A program made the translations under genes and the position numbers. Shown here piece after piece: positions 30,645-52,477 of a DNA stretch of 64,000 bases. Numbering within the stretch: position 1 is the stretch's first letter; each line of letters opens with the position of its first letter. The DNA is taken from positions 64,001 through 128,000 of the forward strand of contig JAVJSW010000068.1 of NCBI GenBank assembly GCA_040219255.1, written 5' to 3'. The DNA comes from Sumerlaeia bacterium. GTDB lineage: Bacteria; Sumerlaeota; Sumerlaeia; SLMS01; JAHLLQ01. The notes below the pieces were generated by a model that worked only from the letters and a program-made list of their open reading frames with translations, was not told where the DNA came from and made no database searches.

Positions 30645-31841
30645 ATGAAAGTTTCCCAGCGCGTTTCCAGCCTCACCCCCTCTCTGACGCTGGCGCTGAC
30701 GGCGAAGGCCAAGGCCATGAAGGCCGAGGGCATCGACGTCGTCTCCTTCGGTGCCGGCGAACCCGATTTCGACACGCCGGACTTCATCAAGGACGTCGCC
30801 ATCGAGGACCTGCGCGCGGGACGAACGAAATATACGGCCGCCAAGGGCGGGCCGGAAATCCTCAAAGGCGTCCAGGAAGCCCTCAAGCGCGACTACTCGC
30901 TCGAATACAAGGACACCGAAATCCTCGTGTCCGTTGGCGGCAAGCACACGCTCTATAACATCTTCATGGCCGTCGTCGATCCCGGCGACGAAGTCATCAT
31001 CCCCGCGCCCTACTGGCTCACCTATCCCGAGCAGGTCCGCGCCGCCGACGGCGTCCCGGTCTTCGTCGATTGCGGACCCGAGCAGAACTTCAAGCTGACC
31101 GCCGATCAGCTTGAAACCGCCATCACGGATAAGACCGTCGCCGTAGTCCTCAACAGCCCCAGCAATCCCACCGGCGCCGTCTATACCAAGGCCGAACTGC
31201 TGGCTCTCGGCAAGGTCCTGGAGAAGCACCCCAAGGTCCTCCTCATCAGCGACGACCTCTATCAGCTCCTCGTCTATTCGCCGGCCGAGTTCCACTCCCT
31301 GGTCACGCTCATGCCCAGCCTGCGCGAGCGCTCGATCATCGTGAACGGCTGGTCCAAGGCCTACAGCATGACCGGCTGGCGCCTCGGCTGGTGCGCCGGA
31401 CCGCAACCCCTCATCAAGGCCATGTCCACCCTCCAGAGCCACTCCACGTCCAACGTCACCACCTTCTGTCAACGCGCCGCCGCCGCCGCCATCACGAGCG
31501 ACCATGCCTTCCTGCGCGAGTGGAAGACCGAATTCGACGCCCGCCGCAAACTCATCGTGGACCTGTTGAACGCCATCCCCGGCGTCACCTGCTCCGCCCC
31601 CGAAGGCGCCTTCTACGCCTTCCCGGACATCTCCGGCCTCTACGGTAAGACTTACGGCGGCAAGGTGGTCAAGGATTCCATGGACTTCGCCGACGCCTGC
31701 CTCGAACAAGCCAAAGTCTCCGTCGTCCCCGGCCAGGTCTTCGGCGAAGACCGCTGCATCCGCCTGAGCTACGCCACCAGCCGCGCCAACATCGAAAAGG
31801 GCCTCGAACGCCTGAAAGACTTCGCGGCGTCGGGGAAGTAA
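30645..31841 (+). CDS. aspC: Class I PLP aminotransferase (aspartate aminotransferase)
   Basis: GAGEPDFDTP, NSPSNPTG, SKAYSMTGWRLG, GAFYAFP, RLSYA. Confidence 0.92.
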   Translation: MKVSQRVSSLTPSLTLALTAKAKAMKAEGIDVVSFGAGEPDFDTPDFIKDVAIEDLRAGRTKYTAAKGGPEILKGVQEALKRDYSLEYKDTEILVSVGGKHTLYNIFMAVVDPGDEVIIPAPYWLTYPEQVRAADGVPVFVDCGPEQNFKLTADQLETAITDKTVAVVLNSPSNPTGAVYTKAELLALGKVLEKHPKVLLISDDLYQLLVYSPAEFHSLVTLMPSLRERSIIVNGWSKAYSMTGWRLGWCAGPQPLIKAMSTLQSHSTSNVTTFCQRAAAAAITSDHAFLREWKTEFDARRKLIVDLLNAIPGVTCSAPEGAFYAFPDISGLYGKTYGGKVVKDSMDFADACLEQAKVSVVPGQVFGEDRCIRLSYATSRANIEKGLERLKDFAASGK

Positions 31842-31930: not shown

Positions 31931-32290
31931 ATGATGACTCTGCGCCGCTTCCTCCCCATTCTGCTCCTCACCCTCGTCCTCGCCGGCTGCGGCACGTCGA
32001 ACAAGGGCACCGCGTCCTGGTACGCCGACCCCTTCACCGGCCGGCCCACGGCCAGCGGCGAGCGCTTCAACCCCAACGACCTGACCGCCGCCCACGCCCA
32101 TTACCCCTTCGGCACACGGCTCAAGGTCACGAACCTCGACAACGGCAAGAGCGTCATCGTTCGCGTCAACGACCGCTTTCCCGGCACCAAAGGCCGCGTC
32201 ATCGACCTCTCGAAAGCCGCCTTCGCCCGCATCGCCCACCCGGATCAGGGCCTGGCGCGGGTGCGGATTCAGGTGGTGTCGGGGCCGTAA
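31931..32290 (+). CDS. rlpA: RlpA-family septal lytic transglycosylase lipoprotein
   Basis: LAGC lipobox; ASWY, TASGE, TAAH, VRVNDR, RVIDLS. Confidence 0.92.
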   Translation: MMTLRRFLPILLLTLVLAGCGTSNKGTASWYADPFTGRPTASGERFNPNDLTAAHAHYPFGTRLKVTNLDNGKSVIVRVNDRFPGTKGRVIDLSKAAFARIAHPDQGLARVRIQVVSGP

Positions 32291-32302
32291 TTTCCTTACG
32301 GT

Positions 32303-32344
32303 GGGCGTGCCGCCCGTGGACCCGCCAGCCATAGCCCACGCCCG
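32303..32344 (+). repeat. Left half of REP doublet (degenerate REP plus flank)
   Basis: 37/42 identical to 60516-60556. Confidence 0.75.
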
Positions 32345-32361
32345 GGTGGCGAAAGCTTCCG

Positions 32362-33666
32362 ATGACCGTTCGCAGCGCCCATAGGAGCCACCTCCACGAA
32401 TACGCCTACGACGGCTTTGGCCGGCGGGCCGAGAAGACCGTGGACTCGGGCGGCGCGAACGAGGAGCACACGCTCTTCCTCTATGACGGCCACCACGTCA
32501 TCGAAGAGCGCGACGGCGCCACGGGCAGTCTGCTCGCCAGCTACGTCCACGGCCTCGGCATCGACAACGTGCTGACGATGCAGCGCGATGTGGATGGCAA
32601 CGGCACGGCGGAGGACTACTTCTACGTGCAGGACGACATGGGCAGTCCGGTGCTCCTGGTGGACGCTGCGGGGGCCATCGTCGAACGCTATGACTACGTC
32701 GATTACGGCCGGGCCATCGTGATGAACCCGGGCGGGGTCGAGACGGGCACCGAGTCGCAGTTCGGCAACCCGTACCTCTTCGTCGGCCGGCGGTGGGACG
32801 GCGAACTGGGCATGTACTGGAACCGCACGCGTCATCTCCATCCGCTGCTGGGCCGCTTCACGACGCGCGATCCGCTGGGGATTTGGGGGGACGCGTCGGC
32901 CTGGGGGAATGGGTACACCTACGCGGGGAATAATCCGTGGACGTATTTTGATCCGTTCGGATTGGAGAAGGAGGAGGTGGATAAGAGTAGGGGGCTGCAT
33001 TGGGATGAGCCATTTAATGACGCTATGGAAAGACTTCGAGAGCACTCTACTTACTATGGCAGTATTATTGAGCACTTGGAAAACAGTGAAAACAAGCATT
33101 CCATCCACAGTCGTGGGAGACGGCGGGGGCTATTCAATAAACCAAATGACGACATAGGAATTCATGTGCATGGCGAGGGTGGAGGTGACGGAAGTGGGAC
33201 ATCTTCGCAGATATTCATACCTAAAAAGTACTTGGAGGGTTTGTCTGAAGATGAGCTAGCACTTGTCTTGGGAAATGAGTTGTACCATGCCTTTGAAGCA
33301 GACCTTGGGGTGTTGACAGAGTCCACCTTGTCCAACCGAGTGGACATTATTGATAAGGGAAGATCTAAGTACGGCGGTGCAACTGGTACTAGGGGTGGTC
33401 ATAAGAATGAGACTGGAAACGTTTATCATTGGGGTGAGTTTAGATCGGATATAGCAGAGCAGGTGGTAAGAAGGGATCTGAAGATTGATAAAGAACTGCT
33501 GCAAAAGCCGTTTATTTTCCCAACATATCCCCATTACACAAGAGAGCAAAGGGCTCTCACCAACGTATGGGACGATGACAGATCTCAGCTTGCGACCGTT
33601 ACAAACGATCCGGCGCCAAATATCGATTCGCTGGCGTCCGTTGACCCCAATATCAAAGAGGATTAA
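32362..33666 (+). CDS. Orphan (5'-truncated) Rhs core with C-terminal toxin domain
   Basis: YAYDGFGRR, YDYVDYG, NPYLFVGRRWD, GRFTTRDPLG, YTYAGNNP..DPFGL; GC falls after DPFGL; lacks the N-terminal YD array. Confidence 0.85.
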   Translation: MTVRSAHRSHLHEYAYDGFGRRAEKTVDSGGANEEHTLFLYDGHHVIEERDGATGSLLASYVHGLGIDNVLTMQRDVDGNGTAEDYFYVQDDMGSPVLLVDAAGAIVERYDYVDYGRAIVMNPGGVETGTESQFGNPYLFVGRRWDGELGMYWNRTRHLHPLLGRFTTRDPLGIWGDASAWGNGYTYAGNNPWTYFDPFGLEKEEVDKSRGLHWDEPFNDAMERLREHSTYYGSIIEHLENSENKHSIHSRGRRRGLFNKPNDDIGIHVHGEGGGDGSGTSSQIFIPKKYLEGLSEDELALVLGNELYHAFEADLGVLTESTLSNRVDIIDKGRSKYGGATGTRGGHKNETGNVYHWGEFRSDIAEQVVRRDLKIDKELLQKPFIFPTYPHYTREQRALTNVWDDDRSQLATVTNDPAPNIDSLASVDPNIKED

Positions 33667-33670
33667 ATAA

Positions 33671-34246
33671 ATGTTGACAAAGCGCAATGAGAGCACTCTA
33701 AACTTTGGGTGGTTGAATTGGTCTAAGCTACAGGTGATTCTTGTCGCTGCGGGAGCAGCCGTCCTTATTTCTTGTGAGGCTCGTCGCGATTATCAACTTG
33801 TGAATGTTGGAGAATACAATCCATATGTAAGCAACAGAGTTGAAACGGATCGCATGGCAGTAGATCGGCTCGGCTTGGGGGAGACGCTGGACAAGATTGA
33901 TCTAAACAAGAAGTATTTGTACGTCTTCGAAAACTATGGCTATGGTTGGTCTTTCTCGGGCAAGGTGTCTCTTGAAAGCCTTGGTTTTGAACTTGGCCAG
34001 AGGGAGGAATTCTTGATTGAATTGAGAAATGATTCTGTTTTGATTGCAAGTGATACGCCTTCTGATTACGTTGATATGTACGTTGCCGTGGCTGTGTTTG
34101 GGGATGACTACCTAGTTGTAAATTGGCAGTCACCTTGTAGCATGCTCGATGAGTCCGCGAAATATGCGCACGACAGCATGAGATACAGCTTTCCTGTTAA
34201 GATACTGGAGCTTCTCAACAATAATTTGCGTGCAGACTGTGACTAG
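33671..34246 (+). CDS. Putative immunity lipoprotein 1
   Basis: Starts 4 nt after the Rhs stop; low GC; VLISC lipobox-like; similar to 34554-35141. Confidence 0.65.
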   Translation: MLTKRNESTLNFGWLNWSKLQVILVAAGAAVLISCEARRDYQLVNVGEYNPYVSNRVETDRMAVDRLGLGETLDKIDLNKKYLYVFENYGYGWSFSGKVSLESLGFELGQREEFLIELRNDSVLIASDTPSDYVDMYVAVAVFGDDYLVVNWQSPCSMLDESAKYAHDSMRYSFPVKILELLNNNLRADCD

Positions 34247-34368
34247 CTATGGGCCGAGACTTATTGCGAGATTCTCAAGTTCTTCTAAATGGAAGTGGCT
34301 ACGAATGACAAAACATTTTCTATTCGCACTGTTAATCGGAACGGCGGCCGACCATGTCATCGCCGCCG

Positions 34369-34464
34369 ACTTCCACTACCTCCTGGAAGACCACGCCGAC
34401 CCCTCCGCTCCCGTCATCGAGCGGCGGGGGCGGGGGACGGCAAGCGGTGAGGTGTTGCATCCGG
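34369..34464 (+). repeat. 96-bp direct repeat copy 1 (gene-fragment derived)
   Basis: 93/96 identical to 35300-35395; encodes FHYLLEDHADPSAPVIERRGRGTASGEVLHP. Confidence 0.9.
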
Positions 34465-34553
34465 TCGAGAGGGATCGCCAAGCCAGAATAAGACGCACTA
34501 TTCGCGGCTTCACGAGCCACTTTACAATCCCTTGCCTGCGGAGTAAATCAACA

Positions 34554-35141
34554 ATGCCAACCTTTCGTTTCTTAGCCTGCACTTTGGCAATCACACTATA
34601 CCTTTTGGGATGTGCCGCTCCTAATCAAGTGCGACTTGTGAGGATTGGTCCATACAACCTGGGGTTCGACAAACGGGTGGAGGAATTGCAATTAAGTGAT
34701 TTTGAGAAAGAGTTCCTGAACGAGAACTCTGATAGAGAATATGAAAAATCAAATCATGTAGCTGTCTATCAAAGAATTTCTGGAAACATTATCTACTCAG
34801 GGACCATAAATTTTAAAGAGCTTCGAATGACCGAGGAATATCTTCGAGAACAACTTGAGGCAGTGCGCGACGAGGCGGTCTACTCTGAGCCAGATGAAAG
34901 CCAGTGGAAGAACCAGCATCTATATATTGCCATTTTCAAAAAACGGGTCAAAGGCGAGATATATGTCTTGATTTGGCATGAGCCGTGCAAGTTGTTATTA
35001 GGAGAAGTAAGTTACGTTCATTGGACCATGGATGTGAGTCGATCGCAATGGCTTCTTGAAGATCTGGACAAAATAATTCCCGTCATGTGTCCCAGTGACC
35101 ATGTAGATCCCGAGGATGGTCGTGATGCGAAAGTCAAATAA
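34554..35141 (+). CDS. Putative immunity lipoprotein 2 (paralogue of 33671-34246)
   Basis: GGAG SD; LLGC lipobox; shares LV.(V/I)G.YN, RVE, SG, W..PC, Y.H..M..S and LE.L with immunity 1. Confidence 0.7.
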   Translation: MPTFRFLACTLAITLYLLGCAAPNQVRLVRIGPYNLGFDKRVEELQLSDFEKEFLNENSDREYEKSNHVAVYQRISGNIIYSGTINFKELRMTEEYLREQLEAVRDEAVYSEPDESQWKNQHLYIAIFKKRVKGEIYVLIWHEPCKLLLGEVSYVHWTMDVSRSQWLLEDLDKIIPVMCPSDHVDPEDGRDAKVK

Positions 35142-35299
35142 AATCTCGACGAGAGTATATAATAGAAAATGTCTTGGTCTGAACGTGATTGCCTCCGATA
35201 TGTTGGCAATTTCGGTCCATTTGCGGCTGTATGCGCAAGGTTTCCAATGGACGATATTTTTTTTCATACTTGTCGTATGCTCATCACTTCAAGCCGTCA

Positions 35300-35691
35300 A
35301 CTTCCACTACCTCCTGGAAGACCACGCCGACCCCTCCGCTCCCGTGATCGAGCGGCGGGGGCGGGGGACGGCGAGCGGTGAGGTCTTGCATCCGGCGGGT
35401 TTGATTCTGCCGGCGGACCGGCTGTTTCGCGAGTTCGTGCTGGATGCGGAGACGCTTCAGGTCGGGTACGCCGACTTTGTCTCGCCAGCCGTCGGCCTCA
35501 GCATGGAGCTGCCGACGTTCGATCTGGGTCCGGACCCGTGGGGCGACGCCGATGGCGACGGCCTCGGGGGCATGGGCGAGTACATCGTGGGCACCGATCC
35601 TTCGCAGTGGGATACCGACGGAGAGGGTGTGTCCGATGCGGCCGAGGTGCGCCAAGGCACGAACCCGACGGATGGCATGGGCAACCTTTAG
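35300..35691 (+). pseudogene. Fragment of a large surface protein with thrombospondin-3-like Ca-binding repeats; begins with 96-bp repeat copy 2
   Basis: DADGDGL...GTDPSQWDTDGEGVSDAAEV..GTNP; GC-rich; no convincing start; ends at the REP flank. Confidence 0.6.
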
Positions 35692-35734
35692 GGAGAGAAA
35701 GCGCCGCCGGACATGGGCGAGACGCCCAGGCTAC
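35691..35734. repeat. Right half of REP doublet (flank plus inverted GTAG REP)
   Basis: gggagagaaagcgccgccggac is 20/22 identical to 60609-60630; minus strand gtagcctgggcgtctcgcccatgt at 35711-35734. Confidence 0.75.
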
Positions 35735-35739
35735 ACGGA

Positions 35740-37509
35740 TTAGTCAAAATCCAGATCGTCAAAGCCCGAGTCGAACACGTCCGAGTCGCTTTCCTGGCGT
35801 TTGAGGACGATCAGGGTGAAGTCGTCGAACTGGTCGGCTTCGCCGCGGTGGCGGACGCAGGACTGGTAGATCGCGTTGCGGATTTCCTCGGCGCGTTTTT
35901 GCCGGTTTTCCCGCAGAATGGTGAAGAGCCGTTCCTCGCCAAAGATTTCGCCCTGGGTGTTTTGAATGTCCGTGACGCCGTCGGTCGAGAGCAGCAGCAC
36001 GCCGCCTTTGGGGAAATCGATGGTTTCCGCTTCGTAGTCCACTTCCGCGCTGATTCCCAGGAACAGGCCGCCCTTGTCCAGGAACGTCATCGTCCCATCG
36101 GGCTTGAGCAGCACCGGATGGCAATGGCCGGCGTTGACGTACTGTAATTGGTCGTCTTCGGGTTTCAGGATCGTGTACACCATCGTGACATACATATCGT
36201 TCGTCACGTCGCGATAGACCATGCGGTTCATGCGGGCGACGGCTTCGACGATGTTGGTGCTGGGGCGTTCGCTTTCGCCCTGGAGGTAACTGCGCGTGGT
36301 CGCCGTCAGGATGGCCGCCGGGACGCCCTTGCCCGACACGTCGGCCACGGCGAAGACGAAGCGGTCGTCGGGCAGTTCGAGGAAGTCGTAGTAATCGCCG
36401 CCCACCTGCTTGGCCGGCAGCGACATCGCCGACACATCGTATCCGGGCACGTTGGGGTACACCTTGGGCAGCAGGTTCATCTGGATCGTGCGGGCGATTT
36501 CCATCTCGCGGGCCAGTTTGTACTGCTCGACCAGTTGGCTGTGCAGCCGCGCGTTGATGATACCGAGCGCCGCCTGGTTCGTCAGACCCGTCAGCAGCTC
36601 CAGCTCCTCGCGGCTGTAGGGCATCATCCGCGTCCGGGTGTCCACATAGACCACGCCGAGCGCCTCGTCCTGATACACGATGGGGGCCACCATGGCGGTG
36701 CGGATGCGATTGAGGATGATGGACTCGCTGCTGGCGAAGCGCTGGTCCTGGGCCGCGTCCGACACCAGCATCGACACCCGGTCGGCCATACACTTATCCA
36801 CGATGGAGCTGGACAGCTTGACTTCCTGATCTTCGCCATCGCGGGCCCGTACCACGCGCGGTTCCAGCTCGTTGGTTTCCGGATTCTTGATGAGCAGATA
36901 GGAGATGTCCGGCTTCAGGATTTCCTGAATCAGCTCGACCACCTTCTCCAACACCTGGTCCAGGTCCAGGAGCGAGCGCATCGCCTCGCTGATCTGGTAG
37001 AGGATTTCCAGGCGCTTGGACGCGTCTTTGAGCGCCATGCCGTGATTGGTGTCGATATTGACGGTCTGGGCGGGTCGGACGCCGGCGCGCACTTCGCCGC
37101 GGGTCGATCCCCACTGGTTTTCGTCCACCACCTTGTAGCTTTGGTTCGGCCGGCCCACGGGCGGCGTGCCCATGAAGGTCTGGCCCGAGGACACGCTGTC
37201 CATCGCGTCGGCGATGCTGTCCTCTTCGAAGAGCAGCGTGGTGTCGCCGATCTGCAAAATGTCGCCGCTGCGCAACTGAGTGGGGCCGCCGATGGTCGCG
37301 CCGTTGAGCTGCGAGCCGTTCTTGCTGCCCAGATCCCGCATGAAATAGTGCTTGTCTTCCTCGTACACCTCGGCGTGGTTGCGGCTCATGCGCCGGTCCA
37401 CAACTTGCAGTTCGTTGTTTACGCTTCGGCCCACGCTGATGCGCCGGCCAGCTCCGAGCTGGATCACGCGGCCTTGTTGCTCGCCGGATTGGATGATCAG
37501 TTTGGGCAT
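35740..37509 (-). CDS. FHA-GAF-SpoIIE (PP2C) phosphatase
   Basis: FHA VGRS..MSRNH..DLGSKNGS; GAF; VGGDYYD, ADVSGKG, NAGH, TDG, DDFT. Confidence 0.93.
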   Translation of the reverse strand: MPKLIIQSGEQQGRVIQLGAGRRISVGRSVNNELQVVDRRMSRNHAEVYEEDKHYFMRDLGSKNGSQLNGATIGGPTQLRSGDILQIGDTTLLFEEDSIADAMDSVSSGQTFMGTPPVGRPNQSYKVVDENQWGSTRGEVRAGVRPAQTVNIDTNHGMALKDASKRLEILYQISEAMRSLLDLDQVLEKVVELIQEILKPDISYLLIKNPETNELEPRVVRARDGEDQEVKLSSSIVDKCMADRVSMLVSDAAQDQRFASSESIILNRIRTAMVAPIVYQDEALGVVYVDTRTRMMPYSREELELLTGLTNQAALGIINARLHSQLVEQYKLAREMEIARTIQMNLLPKVYPNVPGYDVSAMSLPAKQVGGDYYDFLELPDDRFVFAVADVSGKGVPAAILTATTRSYLQGESERPSTNIVEAVARMNRMVYRDVTNDMYVTMVYTILKPEDDQLQYVNAGHCHPVLLKPDGTMTFLDKGGLFLGISAEVDYEAETIDFPKGGVLLLSTDGVTDIQNTQGEIFGEERLFTILRENRQKRAEEIRNAIYQSCVRHRGEADQFDDFTLIVLKRQESDSDVFDSGFDDLDFD

Positions 37510-47968: not shown

Positions 47969-49075
47969 TCACAACGCGATTTCGCGAGCCCGGAATGTGG
48001 AACTCTGGGGCGGATCGGGCGGATCCGCGGGAGGTTTCCCCGGGTCGGCGGATGTGGTCTTCGCGCCGTCTCGCGCCGGGAAGGACGTGTCCGCCGGCAA
48101 CGTGGCGCAAAGTTCGGTCCGGTTTCCCGTCAGCGCCACCGAAACCGAACCCGCCGGGCCCTCCAGAGACTTGCGATACCCCAGCAGTTCCAGCAATCTG
48201 TCGATCTCGGCGAGCATTTCCGCCGCGCTCTGAAACCGCGCCCCCGGGTCCTTGGCGAGAGCCTTCAGGAGAAAGGCCTCGATTTCCTCAGGCAGGTCCG
48301 GAGCCAGACTGCGCGGCTTCGGTGGCCTGGCGTGCAGGTGCATCTGAGCCGTCTCGAAACCCGAGTCGCTCATGAACGGCGGCCGGCCGCACAGAAGCTG
48401 GAAAATCAAAACCCCCAGCGAATACAAATCCGCCCGGTGATCGACGGCGGGATCGGCCAGCACAACCTCTGGAGCCATGTACAGAGGGGTGCCCACGCGG
48501 CTGCATCCGGCCGGATTGAGTCCCATCTCGCCCATGCGGAAAGCCACGCCGAAGTCCATGATCTTCAGCGTTCCGCGCCGGTTGACCATCAGGTTGGCGG
48601 GCTTGATGTCGCGGTGCACGACGCCCTCCGAGTGGACGTGGCGCAGACCCCGGGCAACCTGCCGGGCGAGTCCGAGGCTCTGGACCCAGGTAGGCAGACC
48701 CGTTTCCTGGAGCAAGTTGCGAAGGCTGTCTCCCTCGACGAACTCGAAGACGAGAGCCTGATTGCCCCAGATGTCCCAAGCCATCGCGTGAACCTGCAAA
48801 ACGTTTCCGTGAGGCGACAGCGAAGCCAGCAGCTTACCTTCGAAGGCCAATTGCTTCAGCCGCTCCTTACGCGTTTGCTCGTCAAAAAAGCCGGCCGGAA
48901 TCGTTTTGATCGCCACCGGTCTGTCCAGGCATTGCTGAGTGGCCCGGTAGACCACCCCCATCGATCCCCGGCCGATTTCCAGAAAGTCCTGAAAACCGGG
49001 GAGAGCCAACGGGTAAGCTGGCTTTCCAGAGGGCTTCGGTGCGGACCTTTGGGTGAGTCTCGCGGACTGGGACAT
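47969..49075 (-). CDS. Hanks-type Ser/Thr protein kinase (soluble)
   Basis: GRGSMGVVY, VAIK, HRDIKPAN, DFG, GTPLYMAPE, DLYSLG. Confidence 0.93.
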   Translation of the reverse strand: MSQSARLTQRSAPKPSGKPAYPLALPGFQDFLEIGRGSMGVVYRATQQCLDRPVAIKTIPAGFFDEQTRKERLKQLAFEGKLLASLSPHGNVLQVHAMAWDIWGNQALVFEFVEGDSLRNLLQETGLPTWVQSLGLARQVARGLRHVHSEGVVHRDIKPANLMVNRRGTLKIMDFGVAFRMGEMGLNPAGCSRVGTPLYMAPEVVLADPAVDHRADLYSLGVLIFQLLCGRPPFMSDSGFETAQMHLHARPPKPRSLAPDLPEEIEAFLLKALAKDPGARFQSAAEMLAEIDRLLELLGYRKSLEGPAGSVSVALTGNRTELCATLPADTSFPARDGAKTTSADPGKPPADPPDPPQSSTFRAREIAL

Positions 49076-49291: not shown

Positions 49292-52200
49292 ATGGTTTCC
49301 GTTCCCTCCCCGCCTCCCTTCCTGCCCTGCCTCGTCCGGTCCGATTACGCGCCGGGCGGACAAAGCCTGGCGCGATTGGAGGACATTTTCCGCCGTGCGG
49401 CGCAATTGGGCCTCACCACTCTGGCGCTGGCCGATCCCATGTCCCTGGCCCAGGTGCCGGACGCCGACGCGGCGGCCCGCCGGTGGGGCATCACGCCGAT
49501 TTTTGGGCTCGAAATCCGGGTCACTCCCTTTATGGACCGCGAGGGTGGCGAGGACGCTTCCCCCGCCTGGCTTTACGCCGCCGACACGGCCGGTTGGCAA
49601 CGGCTCGTCGCCCTGCTGAACGACGCCCGGGGCCGCGCCACCCAGGGCAAACCGCCGGTGCTTTCCTGGGCCGATGTGTTCCGCGAGCCCCGGGGATTGG
49701 TGCTTCTCCTCGGAGGCGAGCGGGGCGAATTGACACAGGCCGCCTGTGAGAAGCGTGACAAACACGTCGAAGCGTTGATCGCCACCGCCCTGCGCGCCTT
49801 CGGCAAGCGCCGCCTCGGCCTCGCCCTGCCGCGGCCTGTGGACGCCGGGAGCGTGCGGGCCGCGCGGGCTCTGTGGACCCTGGCCCAGAACCGCGAGCTG
49901 CTGGCCATCGCGGCTCCGCCGGTGCGGTGCGCCCTGCCGGAAGACGACCTCGCCTGGAACGCCATCCGCCGTGGCCGGCGCGGCGAGCAGCCGACCACGC
50001 TCAGCGATCTCGCCCGGCCCCTGCGCGAGCGCGAGCACCTGCCGTCCCTGCGCGAAGCCGCCGAACTCTACGCCGATTTCCCCGGCGCCGTCGAGAATTC
50101 CGGCAAGCTCTTCACCCTCTGCCGCCCCATCGCGCCGGACGGTGGCGCTCCCCGCTTCGCCCGCCGCTTTCCCCGCCTTGTCTTCGAGCGCGGCGTGGAT
50201 GCCGACTCCTGGGTCTGGAACACGGTGTTCGAGCGCGCCGCCGAGCGCTACGGCGACCTGCCGGCGCGCTGGCGCGAGCGCCTCGACGAGGAGTTCCGCG
50301 CCTTTGCCGAAGCCAGCCTGATGGAAGGTCTCGCCTGTATGGCGCGCCTCGCTCAGGCCTTCGACCAGCGCGAAATCCCCCGCGGCCCCGGCGCCGGCTT
50401 TCTAACCGACAGCCTGGTGGCCGCGCTGCTGGGCATTACCCGGGTCGATCCGCTCCGCCACGATTTACCCTTCGCCCTGCCCGCCGACGTGGCGCAGCGC
50501 CCCTTCCGCCTGGATGTGCCTTCCGGGGCGCTTGTGGAGGCCGAGCGCATCCTGCGGGGCCTTTTTCCCGGGTTTCACTGCGAGGTCGGCCGCTGGATGC
50601 GCTGGACGCCCGCGCTCGCGCTCGATCGGCTCCGCCATGCGCTCAAACTCGATTCGCCAAGGATGCCATCGCCAGAGGACCTGCGCACCGCCCGCGAGTC
50701 CGACGCCATCGCCCGCGAGGAATCCGCCGGCGACCCCGATCTCTCCCTCGGCCTCGACGATCCCCGGGGCATGGCGTGGCTGCTGGCGCGGCTCGAGGAC
50801 CGGCCCCGCCTCCTCGAACCGGTGCGCGGGCTCTACGCCCTGACGGCGGAGAGCGCCGTCTCGGCGGTGCCGCTGGCGGCGGGAACGCTGGCCGAGTGGG
50901 ACCGCGACGCCATGATGCGCGTGGGCGCCGGGCTGATCGGCGTACAGAGCGACGATCTGCTGGACCTGGCGGAGGAAGGGGCGGAATGGCTGCGGCGCAC
51001 GGGCCGGCGCTCTTTCCGCGCCGAGGCCACCGCCCTCGATGACCCGGAAGCCTTCGCCATCGTGCGCGAGGGCGCCACCTCGGGCATCGGGCCGCTCGAT
51101 TCGCCGGTGCTCAAGCGCACGCTGCGGGCTCTCCAGCCCACCGATTTCCCCAGTCTGCAACGCGCCATCGACCGAGACAGCGCCGCGCCGGACCGCGAGC
51201 CCGTCGCTTTCGACCGCCTGCGCCTGGGGCTGGAATGCGCGGCGGTGCGGGGGCGGGACGGAGCCTGCTTCTACGCGGCGGCGCTGTCCCAGGCTCAGGG
51301 CGACCCGCGGCGGGTGGCGATGCTGCTGGCCGAGGCGCGCCGCGAGGGCCTGGAAATCGCCCCGCCGGACGTCAATCTTTCCCAATGGCGCTGGTCGCCC
51401 GAAGGCCGCGGCCTGCGCGTGGGGCTGATGGTGGTCAAGGGCTTCCCCCGCAGCGCCTATCGCGAAGTGGCCGACATCCGCCGCTCCATGCTCTTCGCCG
51501 ACACGGCGGATCTTCTGCGGCGGACGAACCCCGCGGCGGTGCGGCGGCTCCATATCGAAGCCCTGGCCCGGGCGGGGGCCCTGGACGGCATCGCGCCGGG
51601 GCGGGCGGCGATCCTGAGTCTCCTGCCGCGTCTCTTCGATCACCTCAGGCCCGAGGAAACCCGCGATACCCAGGCCATGAGCTTTTTCGGCCAGGACCCG
51701 CAATGGCTCCTGGAGCAGCAGGACCCGGCCCTGATCGCCGCCCAGGCCTCCGGCGCCCCGGCGGACCCGCCCGACTCCTGGGAATCGCTGGCGGAGCTGG
51801 ACTTCGCCGCCACCGGTGTGGTGTTTTCCCTGACCCCCGAGGAGCGATACACCGACTTCCTGAAAGTCGCCCAGGTCAAGACGTCCGCCTCCCTCGACAT
51901 GCGCGACCGCGATCAGGTCGTCTCGCTTCTCGGCCACATCGTCGGTGCCGAACCCGACCCGCAAAGCGACACCGGCCGCTGGCTGGCCGATTGCGGCGGC
52001 TTTTTCGCCGAACTGGACGAGCACCGGACCGAATTCGCCCGCGACAGCCGCAACGCCCTCGAACCCGTTCTGGTCACCGGTGAGTTGCGCCGTGAAGGCT
52101 TCTCCTGGATCGTCCGGGCCCGCCGCATGGAGCGCCTCTCGGAAGCCGATCGACAAGCCCGCCGCGCCGACCGCCTGGAGGTGGACATCGGCCGGCTGGA

Positions 52201-52477
52201 TCAGAAGAATCTGAAACGCCTGATGGAGGTCCTGAAAGCCTTTCCCGGCAATGTACCGGTCATGCTGAACGAGGCCCCGGCGGAGAAATCACGCCTCCTC
52301 AACCGCCTCGCCGCCCGGCGCGTCATGCCCTGCCCGTTGCTCGAGGTGCGGCTCAACATGGTGCTCAACAATCGCGGCTGGCGGCTCTACGTCGACGGCG
52401 TGGCGCGGCCGCTGCGTGTCGTCCTCAACCACGATTCGAGCGACACCACGGAGCGCCGGGTGGCGAGTTCGCTGTGA
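49292..52477 (+). CDS. DnaE (Pol III alpha)-like protein, predicted catalytically inactive
   Basis: PHP-like start (RSDY, ALAD, PIFGLE), GPG...SLVAALLGITRVDPL, LDDPEAF, PPDVNLS, GLRVGL.VVKG, EALARAGALD, OB-like and C-terminal domains; catalytic Asp motifs absent. Confidence 0.82.
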   Translation: MVSVPSPPPFLPCLVRSDYAPGGQSLARLEDIFRRAAQLGLTTLALADPMSLAQVPDADAAARRWGITPIFGLEIRVTPFMDREGGEDASPAWLYAADTAGWQRLVALLNDARGRATQGKPPVLSWADVFREPRGLVLLLGGERGELTQAACEKRDKHVEALIATALRAFGKRRLGLALPRPVDAGSVRAARALWTLAQNRELLAIAAPPVRCALPEDDLAWNAIRRGRRGEQPTTLSDLARPLREREHLPSLREAAELYADFPGAVENSGKLFTLCRPIAPDGGAPRFARRFPRLVFERGVDADSWVWNTVFERAAERYGDLPARWRERLDEEFRAFAEASLMEGLACMARLAQAFDQREIPRGPGAGFLTDSLVAALLGITRVDPLRHDLPFALPADVAQRPFRLDVPSGALVEAERILRGLFPGFHCEVGRWMRWTPALALDRLRHALKLDSPRMPSPEDLRTARESDAIAREESAGDPDLSLGLDDPRGMAWLLARLEDRPRLLEPVRGLYALTAESAVSAVPLAAGTLAEWDRDAMMRVGAGLIGVQSDDLLDLAEEGAEWLRRTGRRSFRAEATALDDPEAFAIVREGATSGIGPLDSPVLKRTLRALQPTDFPSLQRAIDRDSAAPDREPVAFDRLRLGLECAAVRGRDGACFYAAALSQAQGDPRRVAMLLAEARREGLEIAPPDVNLSQWRWSPEGRGLRVGLMVVKGFPRSAYREVADIRRSMLFADTADLLRRTNPAAVRRLHIEALARAGALDGIAPGRAAILSLLPRLFDHLRPEETRDTQAMSFFGQDPQWLLEQQDPALIAAQASGAPADPPDSWESLAELDFAATGVVFSLTPEERYTDFLKVAQVKTSASLDMRDRDQVVSLLGHIVGAEPDPQSDTGRWLADCGGFFAELDEHRTEFARDSRNALEPVLVTGELRREGFSWIVRARRMERLSEADRQARRADRLEVDIGRLDQKNLKRLMEVLKAFPGNVPVMLNEAPAEKSRLLNRLAARRVMPCPLLEVRLNMVLNNRGWRLYVDGVARPLRVVLNHDSSDTTERRVASSL

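Follow-up and report, generated by a model that had tools for sequence, protein, structure and literature searches.

A predicted pseudo-polymerase of the Pol III alpha type maintained throughout Candidatus Sumerlaeota

Why would a bacterium keep a complete gene for the alpha subunit of DNA polymerase III in which the catalytic signatures have been replaced? The question is raised by an open reading frame in a window of 64,000 nucleotides from a metagenome-assembled genome of Candidatus Sumerlaeota (contig JAVJSW010000068.1), to which all positions below refer. The reading frame, which we call pDnaE, starts with ATG and runs uninterrupted for 1061 residues (Table 1). Its gene has a G+C content of 0.72, against about 0.64 for the window. 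Proteins of this type are named "PHP domain-containing protein" or "polymerase subunit alpha" at NCBI, and replicases would be miscounted if these were taken for DnaE.

pDnaE has the domain order of the Pol III alpha fold, with PHP, palm, thumb, fingers, the helix-hairpin-helix (HhH) or beta-binding domain, the OB domain, and the C-terminal domain. The full-length collinearity with Pol III alpha proposed in a preliminary description is therefore borne out by the reading frame, the domain matches, and the structural model. Pfam finds HHH_6 at residues 686-773 and PHP at residues 24-179, DNA_pol3_alpha is matched at profile positions 3-91 of 260 only, and the finger domain reaches 16.5 bits (cut-off 22), covering no more than positions 15-67 of the 166 in its profile. 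In NCBIfam, the DnaE1 model PRK05673 matches best, with 209.7 bits (cut-off 1002), and the curated DnaE2 model PRK05672 gives 131.5 bits (cut-off 939 bits). The homology to Pol III alpha is real, and it lies far below the family cut-offs. The AF2 model has a pLDDT of 90.4 and a pTM of 0.88. When it was compared with known structures, as the preliminary description had suggested, the alpha subunits of Thermus aquaticus (Taq), E. coli, and M. tuberculosis came out on top (Foldseek E 2e-48), with VIA Z scores of 34.5 over 736 residues for E. coli alpha and 33.8 for Taq alpha.

Table 1 Features of the pDnaE locus. Positions are those of the window; residues are those of the protein.
Feature	Residues	Position	Strand	Basis
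Ser/Thr kinase, divergent neighbour		47969-49075	-	Pkinase, E 3e-50
pDnaE, whole gene		49292-52477, including stop codon	+	Intact 1061-aa ORF; DnaE1-like paralogue, predicted catalytically dead
PHP domain, degenerate metal site	about 5-285	49304-50146	+	VIA match of model 1-280 to E. coli alpha PHP (4gx8), Z 29.5
Family-specific motif F298-x-R300-G-x-D303-A-x-S306-x-x-W309, palm start		50183-50218	+	84-97% conserved in 73 family sequences
Gly-rich loop GPGAGF (canonical GPGRGS)	365-370	50384-50401	+	Glycines kept in 81-90% of family
Former active-site strand (canonical ERFLN..R..MPDxDxD), now FALPADVAQRPFRLD	394-408	50471-50515	+	Alignment
Former third-Asp strand (canonical K-M-D-F-L-G), now GLIGVQSD		50927-50950	+	Alignment
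Finger-deletion junction, about 112 residues (canonical 641-752: RPGP, YQEQ, basic pair, GYGFNKSH)		51173-51187	+	Alignment
Beta-binding domain, tandem HhH, best conserved part	about 656-785	51257-51646	+	Pfam HHH_6, E 1e-17
QAMSFF, clamp-binding-type motif, flexible linker	794-799	51671-51688	+	pLDDT 51-69
OB domain	859-950	51866-52141	+	Model follows Taq alpha through residue 950; alone, matches OB folds at Z about 10
C-terminal domain, homologous to that of DnaE1	952-1042	52145-52417	+	Folded alone, pLDDT 87.2

Relatives of pDnaE were gathered by a full profile scan; a word-indexed protein search returned only 2 relatives when queried with the single protein and 8 when queried with the alignment. 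The resulting family contains 73 distinct sequences (77 in the counts of catalytic columns) and was set against 41 canonical DnaE sequences. Several of its representatives share no more than 25-35% identity with the Sumerlaeota loci compared, and the family may extend beyond this phylum. The query, the pDnaE of the window, keeps 78 of the 90 columns conserved in the family, for which the median is 84.

The preliminary description had read three replacements in the polymerase site, namely GPGRGS by GPGAGF (about 50385), the PDxDxD strand by another sequence (about 50470-50515), and the third-Asp motif by GLIGVQSD, together with a largely deleted finger segment, and had advised a search for orthologues with the same losses. 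The alignment recovers each of these losses. P404, R406, and G550 stand at the three catalytic Asp columns of the query, and L548 and G550 align with K560 and D562 in the canonical DnaE from the same genome. Across the family, the arginine of the Gly-rich loop (R368) is kept in 32% and its serine (S370) in 10%, Asp is found in 3/77 sequences at column D407 and in 1/77 at column D409, and K560 is kept in 3%. Column D562 contains Asp in 0/77 family sequences versus 41/41 canonical ones. Among the 73 distinct sequences, 37 have no acidic residue at the three catalytic columns, 34 have one, two have two, and none has three. All 41 canonical sequences are acidic at all three columns, although this set was chosen by PDxDxD and only the third column is independent; in the canonical DnaE1 of Sumerlaeota, which were not picked by motif, the triad reads DDD in 11/11. 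More generally, 113 columns are at least 95% conserved in canonical DnaE, and the family keeps 34 of them, with losses clustered at the active site and the fingers. Canonical columns 641-752 are a gap in 97-100% of family members, and query residues 622-658 correspond to residues 631-780 of the E. coli alpha chain. Judged from its sequence, pDnaE has lost both the residues of polymerase catalysis and that part of the fingers which binds the dNTP, and the alignments give no sign of an alternative acidic cluster that could form in three dimensions at the former active site.

Could pDnaE still polymerise DNA by means of non-canonical residues? Glu is common at column D409 (27/77) or column D411 (44/77), and the genomes G013 (93% complete) and G015 (87%), both from one family, have pDnaE but yielded no canonical dnaE. 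A true absence would contradict the description of pDnaE as a dead enzyme. However, a 62-residue C-terminal remnant of canonical dnaE (E 1e-7 to canonical residues 1106-1170) lies at a contig end in G015, and the pDnaE proteins of both genomes lack the triad like other members. In several further assemblies, canonical dnaE sits right at the start of a contig. With the finger segment deleted in the whole family and a full set of acidic residues in none of its distinct sequences, we consider polymerase activity very improbable. The source genome of pDnaE also encodes a canonical DnaE, for which the preliminary description had advised a search; its DDD triad is intact and its PHP site reads HHDHEHCDH.

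The PHP domain offers another possible activity. Its nine-residue metal site motif is HHDHEH[C/H]DH, according to the text of a survey of these polymerases (PMC12926913). The query keeps one of these nine ligands (E74), and CLVRSDY stands where the canonical protein has HLHVHSEF, so the loss of the PHP His ligands noted in the preliminary description holds. In the family, the site is complete in G054 (HHDHE-HCDH), one substitution off in genus g20 and in G057 (HHDHEHCNH, a variant also present in one canonical DnaE), and HHNHE-HCNH in G041; most members have lost several ligands. The PHP site is thus predicted to be dead in the query and intact or near-intact in a few pDnaE lineages. The latter would fit a protein that has given up polymerisation and carries a PHP 3'-5' exonuclease, which would proofread or process ends in trans while tethered to the clamp. 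Bacterial PolX offers a precedent: the text of the same survey describes PolX proteins whose polymerase site is inactive and whose PHP exonuclease is active (PMC12926913). PolX, however, belongs to the X-family, and in the query and most pDnaE proteins the PHP site has been lost along with the polymerase site. Because the query keeps one ligand of nine and most members have lost several, an exonuclease is not the conserved function of the family as a whole. A complementation pattern, in which the pDnaE site would be intact where the canonical one is dead, was rejected, as the PHP site was complete in 11/11 canonical Sumerlaeota DnaE1 checked. We regard the exonuclease carrier as quite unlikely overall, and it is disfavoured for the lineage of the query.

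A gene that has lost its catalytic residues may simply be decaying, or may be a recent phage or plasmid acquisition without a function in the host. The deviating G+C content is in line with this, and so is a stop flagged within the matched stretch in 4/70 genomes, with the gene split in a fifth. Yet the other 65/70 matches, some of them truncated where a contig stops, had no stop flagged, and pDnaE is found across the phylum: out of 75 Sumerlaeota species genomes, 70 have a pDnaE-type match, among them 43/43 of those at least 90% complete, and the five genomes without a match are 66-87% complete. In three genomes of one genus, dN/dS is 0.150-0.185 for pDnaE versus 0.155-0.177 for canonical dnaE. 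Purifying selection on pDnaE is as strong as on canonical dnaE, and this ratio, together with the presence throughout the phylum, argues against the pseudogene decay that the preliminary description had proposed to look for by dN/dS. Nor did any of 50,697 phage records or 72,556 plasmid records cover at least 80% of pDnaE, the partial matches listed being 21-30% identical, and a phage or plasmid origin was rejected for want of a near match in these records. Decay or recent acquisition is extremely improbable, and to the extent that computation allows it is already refuted.

Throughout Candidatus Sumerlaeota, pDnaE exists as a single copy that is passed on vertically and is subject to purifying selection. 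Identity to the query declines as taxonomic distance grows, being 30-42% within its family, 31-38% within its order, and 25-29% within its class. In a tree, the pDnaE family forms a group of its own, and the branch that separates it from every intact DnaE has full support. It sits on long branches outside DnaE1 as well as outside the intact Sumerlaeota genes of DnaE2-like type; long-branch effects on this placement are likely. Over long distances the family evolves faster than canonical dnaE, with identities of 26-28% versus 44-46% for the same genome pairs.

What the family has retained points to DNA and the sliding clamp. In the HhH domain, S697, G762, D765, and R771 are invariant in the family, R730 and R744 are found in 96-97%, and all six residues are shared with canonical DnaE. 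The QAMSFF motif had been placed by the preliminary description at the position of the internal clamp-binding motif of DnaE. Its linker window is homologous to that of canonical DnaEs, and most members carry a motif there, as often as the canonical proteins do: in the homologous 25-residue window, the motif core is present in 59/73 family sequences (12.3 in shuffles) and 33/41 canonical ones (8.3 in shuffles). Deep members read QLQLF, QMTLF, or QFTLF; in the order of the query the motif is degenerate (x-L-x-F-F, without Gln), and it was not found in 14/73 members.

The query model includes the OB and C-terminal domains, of which a few scattered columns show conservation across the family. When the isolated C-terminal domain was compared with 48,161 chains, the best match was Taq alpha 1122-1203 (Z 6.1, 72 residues aligned, 24% identity), followed by E. 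coli alpha 1073-1159 (Z 5.3, 74 aligned); these Z scores are modest. A complex prediction of tau 455-635 with pDnaE 825-1045, both given as alignments, scored 0.00 and counts neither way.

The family also has a motif of its own at the start of the palm, whose F298, R300, and W309 are found in 0% of the 41 canonical DnaE. Residues so conserved in the family and absent from canonical DnaE, under a constraint as strong as that on an essential enzyme, could mean that pDnaE is an enzyme of another kind, in which the scaffold has acquired a new site for catalysis or ligand binding, such as R300-G-x-D303-A-x-S306-x-x-W309, and DNA and clamp binding deliver it. However, no known catalytic signature was matched in Pfam or NCBIfam, and the motif is short and could just as well form a surface for interactions or a structural patch in place of lost contacts. 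We hold a new enzyme to be unlikely.

An intact dead polymerase kept across a phylum probably has a task on DNA and at the sliding clamp that is not enzymatic. A dead full-length alpha maintained phylum-wide under replicase-like constraint implies a non-catalytic function of the alpha scaffold, and because the duplex-binding HhH domain and the clamp-type motif in the linker are the parts best kept, we infer that pDnaE probably still docks on the DnaN clamp and on DNA. The explanation we favour, with fair rather than high confidence, is that pDnaE is a non-catalytic, DNA- and clamp-binding pseudo-polymerase, a paralogue of DnaE1-type alpha with the full multi-domain fold. It would most likely dock at or near primer-template junctions and act there as a structural or regulatory subunit, that is, as a placeholder, a scaffold, or a regulator of polymerase traffic, not as an enzyme. 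Candidate settings would be the replisome, for instance on a tau arm, or repair. More tentatively, pDnaE may be an obligatory non-catalytic subunit of the Sumerlaeota replisome that occupies one clamp, and perhaps a tau arm, beside the active DnaE1; we see this as possible, with the odds against it.

If that were true, pDnaE would be the bacterial counterpart of the inactive Pol epsilon module, and the C-family, so far made up of PolC and DnaE1-3, would gain a fifth group and its first inactivated member to be described. Those four groups are described as active enzymes in C-family surveys (PMC12926913; PMC3919608), whose main text describes no inactive group. Dead paralogues are known for the Y-, X-, and B-families, and a word search of the literature returned none for the C-family. 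DnaE1 (2hnh from E. coli, 2hpi from T. aquaticus, 7pu7 from M. tuberculosis) has the same domain order and fold as pDnaE, and the clamp-type motif falls in the same linker window as in the canonical DnaEs of the comparison set. In contrast to DnaE1, pDnaE lacks the Asp triad, ERFLN..R, K-x-D-x-LG, and about 112 finger residues, scores below the PRK05673 cut-off, and has a dead PHP site in the query. It differs from DnaE2/ImuC in lacking the triad, possessing a C-terminal domain, having no conserved neighbour, and staying below the PRK05672 cut-off.

Precedents for polymerase folds kept without catalysis come from other families. ImuB, a clamp-binding scaffold, has a Y-family fold and works in the ImuA-ImuB-DnaE2 mutasome, whereas pDnaE belongs to the C-family; no imuA/imuB/dnaE2 cassette was found beside pDnaE orthologues at 28 loci. 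Both are polymerase homologues without catalytic residues, ImuB being described as catalytically inactive in the texts of PMC12926913 and PMC6511836. In eukaryotes, the C-terminal half of Pol2 in Pol epsilon preserves the fold of the replicative polymerase as a dead copy with a structural part to play in the replisome, according to the text of PMC6265327. That module is of the B-family, is fused to the active polymerase, and has been shown by experiment to act in CMG assembly, while pDnaE is a separate C-family gene known from sequence. pDnaE bears on whether bacterial replisomes hold structural pseudo-polymerases like eukaryotic ones, and it opens the study, in isolation, of the alpha surfaces that matter without catalysis and of the competition among polymerases for the clamp.

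The surroundings of the gene vary among genomes. The preliminary description saw in the divergent Ser/Thr kinase a hint of co-regulation; this does not hold, as a kinase homologue was found in the flanks of 0/28 orthologous loci (some genomes counted twice). The same holds for the other neighbours of pDnaE in the window (M14 peptidase, thioredoxin-like, radical SAM, and exo/endo/phosphatase genes). No operon or neighbour that would link pDnaE to replication is conserved at these loci, and the sole recurrent "families" were shadow ORFs inside the pDnaE gene itself. The source genome carries an extra dnaN copy, which was rejected as the partner of pDnaE because no other genome of the 75 has its orthologue. 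No RNA run containing the pDnaE gene was listed, and one DNA metagenome run held 0.27 of the gene's words. In 34 regions upstream of pDnaE, five known LexA-box patterns gave 0 matches, and the sole shared word was the -35-like TTCTTGACAT, present in 10-11 of the 34.

The preliminary description presented the gene of the 1061-residue protein, here called pDnaE, as an intact reading frame collinear with Pol III alpha, and the ORF check, Pfam and NCBIfam confirm this. The top NCBIfam model is that of DnaE1 (PRK05673), whose cut-off of 1002 bits is far above the score obtained, 209.7. Besides the two Pfam domains in the table, the first third alone of the DNA_pol3_alpha core is matched (profile positions 3-91 of 260), and the finger domain scores below threshold. 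Against solved Pol III alpha chains, pDnaE residues 6-395 and 658-1014 are alignable and the active-site region is unaligned; residues 631-780 of E. coli alpha correspond to pDnaE 622-658 only. A predicted model, suggested earlier as a check, agrees with the assignment. In this AF2 model, built from the family alignment (pLDDT 90.4, pTM 0.88), the predicted fold is the full fold of Pol III alpha, matching Taq alpha in Foldseek (E 2e-48), E. coli 2hnh (VIA Z 34.5, rmsd 5.3 Å, 736 residues aligned) and Taq 2hpi (VIA Z 33.8, 796 aligned, model residues 8-950). The C-terminal 91 residues were folded separately (pLDDT 87.2), and the top two of 48,161 chains for this isolated domain were alpha C-terminal domains. 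The scores are modest (Z 6.1 with Taq 1122-1203 and 5.3 with E. coli 1073-1159), yet the matches are colinear, with 22-24% identity.

Locations of features in the window, in pDnaE and in related loci
Feature	Location	Strand	Remarks
pDnaE gene	window 49292-52477	+	uninterrupted 1061-aa ORF
PHP domain	pDnaE residues 24-179		Pfam
HHH_6 domain	pDnaE residues 686-773		Pfam
Family-specific motif	pDnaE residues 298-309		F-x-R-G-x-D-A-x-S-x-x-W
Soluble Ser/Thr kinase	window 47969-49075	-	
FHA-GAF-SpoIIE phosphatase	window 35740-37509	-	PP2C-type
Low-G+C stretch	window 32000-36000		G+C 0.52-0.56 vs ~0.64
Four ORFs	window 32362-35691		all on the same strand
tRNA-Gly(GCC) call	window 31687-31782	-	ARAGORN, 96 nt
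Aminotransferase ORF	window 30645-31841	opposite to tRNA call	Aminotran_1_2, E 2e-71
Second dnaN-like gene	C78:47337-48563 (L087)		409 aa, same genome, outside window
Open frame at contig end, G015	L077:1510-1695		62 aa

The replacements of catalytic motifs reported for pDnaE were each recovered in place by ORF translation and alignment. C-family catalysis requires the Asp residues of these motifs. We compared alignment columns between 41 intact DnaEs and 73 distinct sequences of the pDnaE family, that is, its orthologues (45 representatives and 32 from genome loci, less 4 duplicates, with overlapping lineages). At the three catalytic columns, acidic residues number none in 37 family sequences, one in 34, two in 2 and three in 0. 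All three are acidic in 41/41 intact DnaEs, a set selected by the presence of PDxDxD, so that the third column alone is independent; Sumerlaeota canonical DnaE1, selected without the motif, has DDD in 11/11. Intact DnaE has 113 columns with conservation of 95% or more, of which the family retains 34; the motifs lost are ERFLN..R, PDxDxD, H..G of the palm, K-x-D-x-LG and F-Q. In 97-100% of family sequences, gaps replace the whole of segment 641-752 (numbering of the genome's own canonical DnaE), which carries RPGP, YQEQ, the basic pair and GYGFNKSH. The catalytic centre is absent, and these observations support the reading of pDnaE as catalytically dead.

Residues invariant in the family cluster most strongly in the HhH/beta-binding domain (S697, R730, R744, G762, D765 and R771), and also in the PHP scaffold, at the Gly-rich loop and at the finger base; all of them are common to intact DnaE. 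The family-specific motif in the table has no counterpart in intact DnaE. The QAMSFF of pDnaE sits in a low-confidence linker (pLDDT 51-69) past the HhH/beta-binding domain. A clamp-type core, scored as [LMF]F or Qxx[LM]x[LF] in the homologous 25-residue linker window, is present in 59/73 family sequences (12.3 expected from shuffles) and 33/41 intact DnaEs (8.3 expected). Deep family members carry QLQLF, QMTLF or QFTLF, and pDnaE's own order carries x-L-x-F-F; PMC12926913 gives the clamp-binding consensus as QxxLF. Only one of nine PHP metal ligands is left in pDnaE, and most family members lack several, so the family-wide conserved function is not the PHP exonuclease. The site is complete in G054, one residue off (D to N) in genus g20 and G057, and HHNHE-HCNH in G041; therefore, the family ancestor probably still had a PHP exonuclease, judging from these sequences. 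Canonical DnaE1 has a complete PHP site in 11/11 genomes checked.

A profile from 11 orthologues was run against 1.84 billion representative proteins. Among the matches listed were 149 other proteins, 57 of them without a PDxDxD string; two of canonical length (P0145 and P0149) were left out, and the 55 counted mostly match in a single stretch end to end. Intact DnaEs among the matches listed score at most 396 bits, in two stretches broken at the finger deletion. A family-type match was found in 70/75 Sumerlaeota species genomes, including 43/43 that are at least 90% complete. The five without a match have completeness values of 66-87%; in G035, which is among these five, a separate search gave a C-terminal fragment. 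A stop is flagged in 4/70 orthologues, the gene is split in a fifth, and several more are truncated by contig ends. Within genus g20, our own Nei-Gojobori script gives a dN/dS of 0.150-0.185 for pDnaE; canonical dnaE in those genomes has 0.155-0.177, and the two genes show equal amino-acid identities (94-96%). Synonymous sites have reached saturation in genus g50, where the two genes likewise do not differ in identity (~81-84%). Over long distances, to other orders, pDnaE diverges more quickly (26-28% identity, versus 44-46% for canonical dnaE). Of 90 columns conserved in the family, 78 are retained in the query (family median 84). A decaying pseudogene, the alternative named at the outset, is refuted, as far as computation can show, by the phylum-wide presence and by dN/dS values like those of canonical dnaE. 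Constraint is strong, and the conclusion that pDnaE is dead but selected is supported.

Orthologues are less identical to the query the more distant their taxonomy (30-42% in the same family, 31-38% in the same order, 25-29% in the same class), a pattern that fits vertical descent. In a quick maximum-likelihood tree (60 sequences, LG+G4, SH-aLRT), a fully supported branch of length 0.59 separates 20/20 family sequences from every intact DnaE1 and from the DnaE2-like third genes that some Sumerlaeota have. The family is placed outside Sumerlaeota DnaE1 and is not nested in it, on long branches with a risk of long-branch attraction. A DnaE1-like ancestor is suggested by the C-terminal domain, which is of DnaE1 type. 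Near relatives of pDnaE were absent from the phage and plasmid collections.

We infer that pDnaE acts as a non-catalytic subunit, whose HhH domain would bind duplex DNA and whose linker motif would bind the DnaN clamp. On clamps at primer termini, it might serve as a scaffold or placeholder; alternatively, it might form a structural polymerase-like arm of the replisome. A putative role in the replisome is plausible. In the available portions of PMC12926913, the C-family is divided into four groups, each taken to consist of polymerases, and inactivity of homologues is mentioned for the Y-, X- and B-families or exonuclease domains only; pDnaE is likewise inactive by its motifs, but belongs to the C-family. 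Those of PMC3919608 use 'inactive' of ImuA and ImuB only, and the Sumerlaeota paper PMC8092238 lacks the words 'polymerase' and 'DnaE'. The literature search, which covered article text, gave nothing relevant on inactive DnaE or on Sumerlaeota DNA polymerase III. NCBI names family proteins 'PHP domain-containing protein' or 'polymerase subunit alpha'. To the extent of these searches, pDnaE is the first pseudo-enzyme paralogue of a polymerase in the C-family.

The intact replicase expected beside pDnaE is present: the 5.35-Mb assembly (83 contigs) encodes a 1204-aa canonical DnaE on contig C1, with PDIDVD, KMDFLG, GPGRGS, RPGP, NKSH and a complete PHP metal site (HHDHEHCDH). Family f4 is represented by just two genomes, G013 (93% complete) and G015 (87%). 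In neither was canonical dnaE found with the Pfam core model or with this DnaE as query, and their pDnaE also lacks the catalytic triad. The open frame at a G015 contig end matches canonical residues 1106-1170 (34% identity, E 1e-7 in a single comparison) and is, by sequence, a C-terminal remnant of canonical dnaE. In at least seven assemblies (G000, the window's genome, and G008, G014, G024, G025, G035 and G071), canonical dnaE starts within ~1.2 kb of a contig start, which suggests hard-to-assemble sequence upstream. We read the missing f4 genes as assembly loss, for G013 only tentatively.

A third C-family gene is present in some Sumerlaeota (G034, G053, G039 and G069; L103-L106) but not in the window's genome. 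It encodes 1034-1126 aa, has PDxDxD intact and clusters separately from DnaE1; a DnaE2-like identity is probable. The second dnaN-like gene of this genome is 31% identical to the regular dnaN on contig C70. Other matching genomes have the regular type only (23-33% identical to the second gene; 5/75 gave no match), and it therefore looks like a strain-specific extra clamp. The tau (DnaX) C-terminus in pDnaE's order (L110-L128) has a well conserved end of ~40 residues (consensus LTF..ALE.YPDFR.ACELV..H.GV.P..FNG), a candidate polymerase-binding tail.

The suggested co-regulation with the divergent Ser/Thr kinase was not supported, as the kinase and other window neighbours were found beside orthologues in 0/28 loci (with some genomes represented twice). 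Neither this kinase nor the window's phosphatase is linked to pDnaE orthologues in other genomes. Shadow ORFs inside the gene excepted, one ORF family recurs beside pDnaE, in just 4 of the 18 loci clustered; therefore, no neighbour is conserved. No LexA box of known type was found upstream of the orthologues in 34 loci. In 10-11 of the 34 upstream regions (200 bp 5' of the orthologues) there is a common word, TTCTTGACAT, which resembles an extended -35 box; the window's own region has TTGACC. The tRNA-Gly(GCC) call is probably false because it lies inside the 3' part of the aminotransferase ORF and is unusually long. The low-G+C stretch is possibly foreign DNA; of its four ORFs, three match nothing in Pfam, and the fourth matches just a bacterial TSP3 repeat, below threshold.
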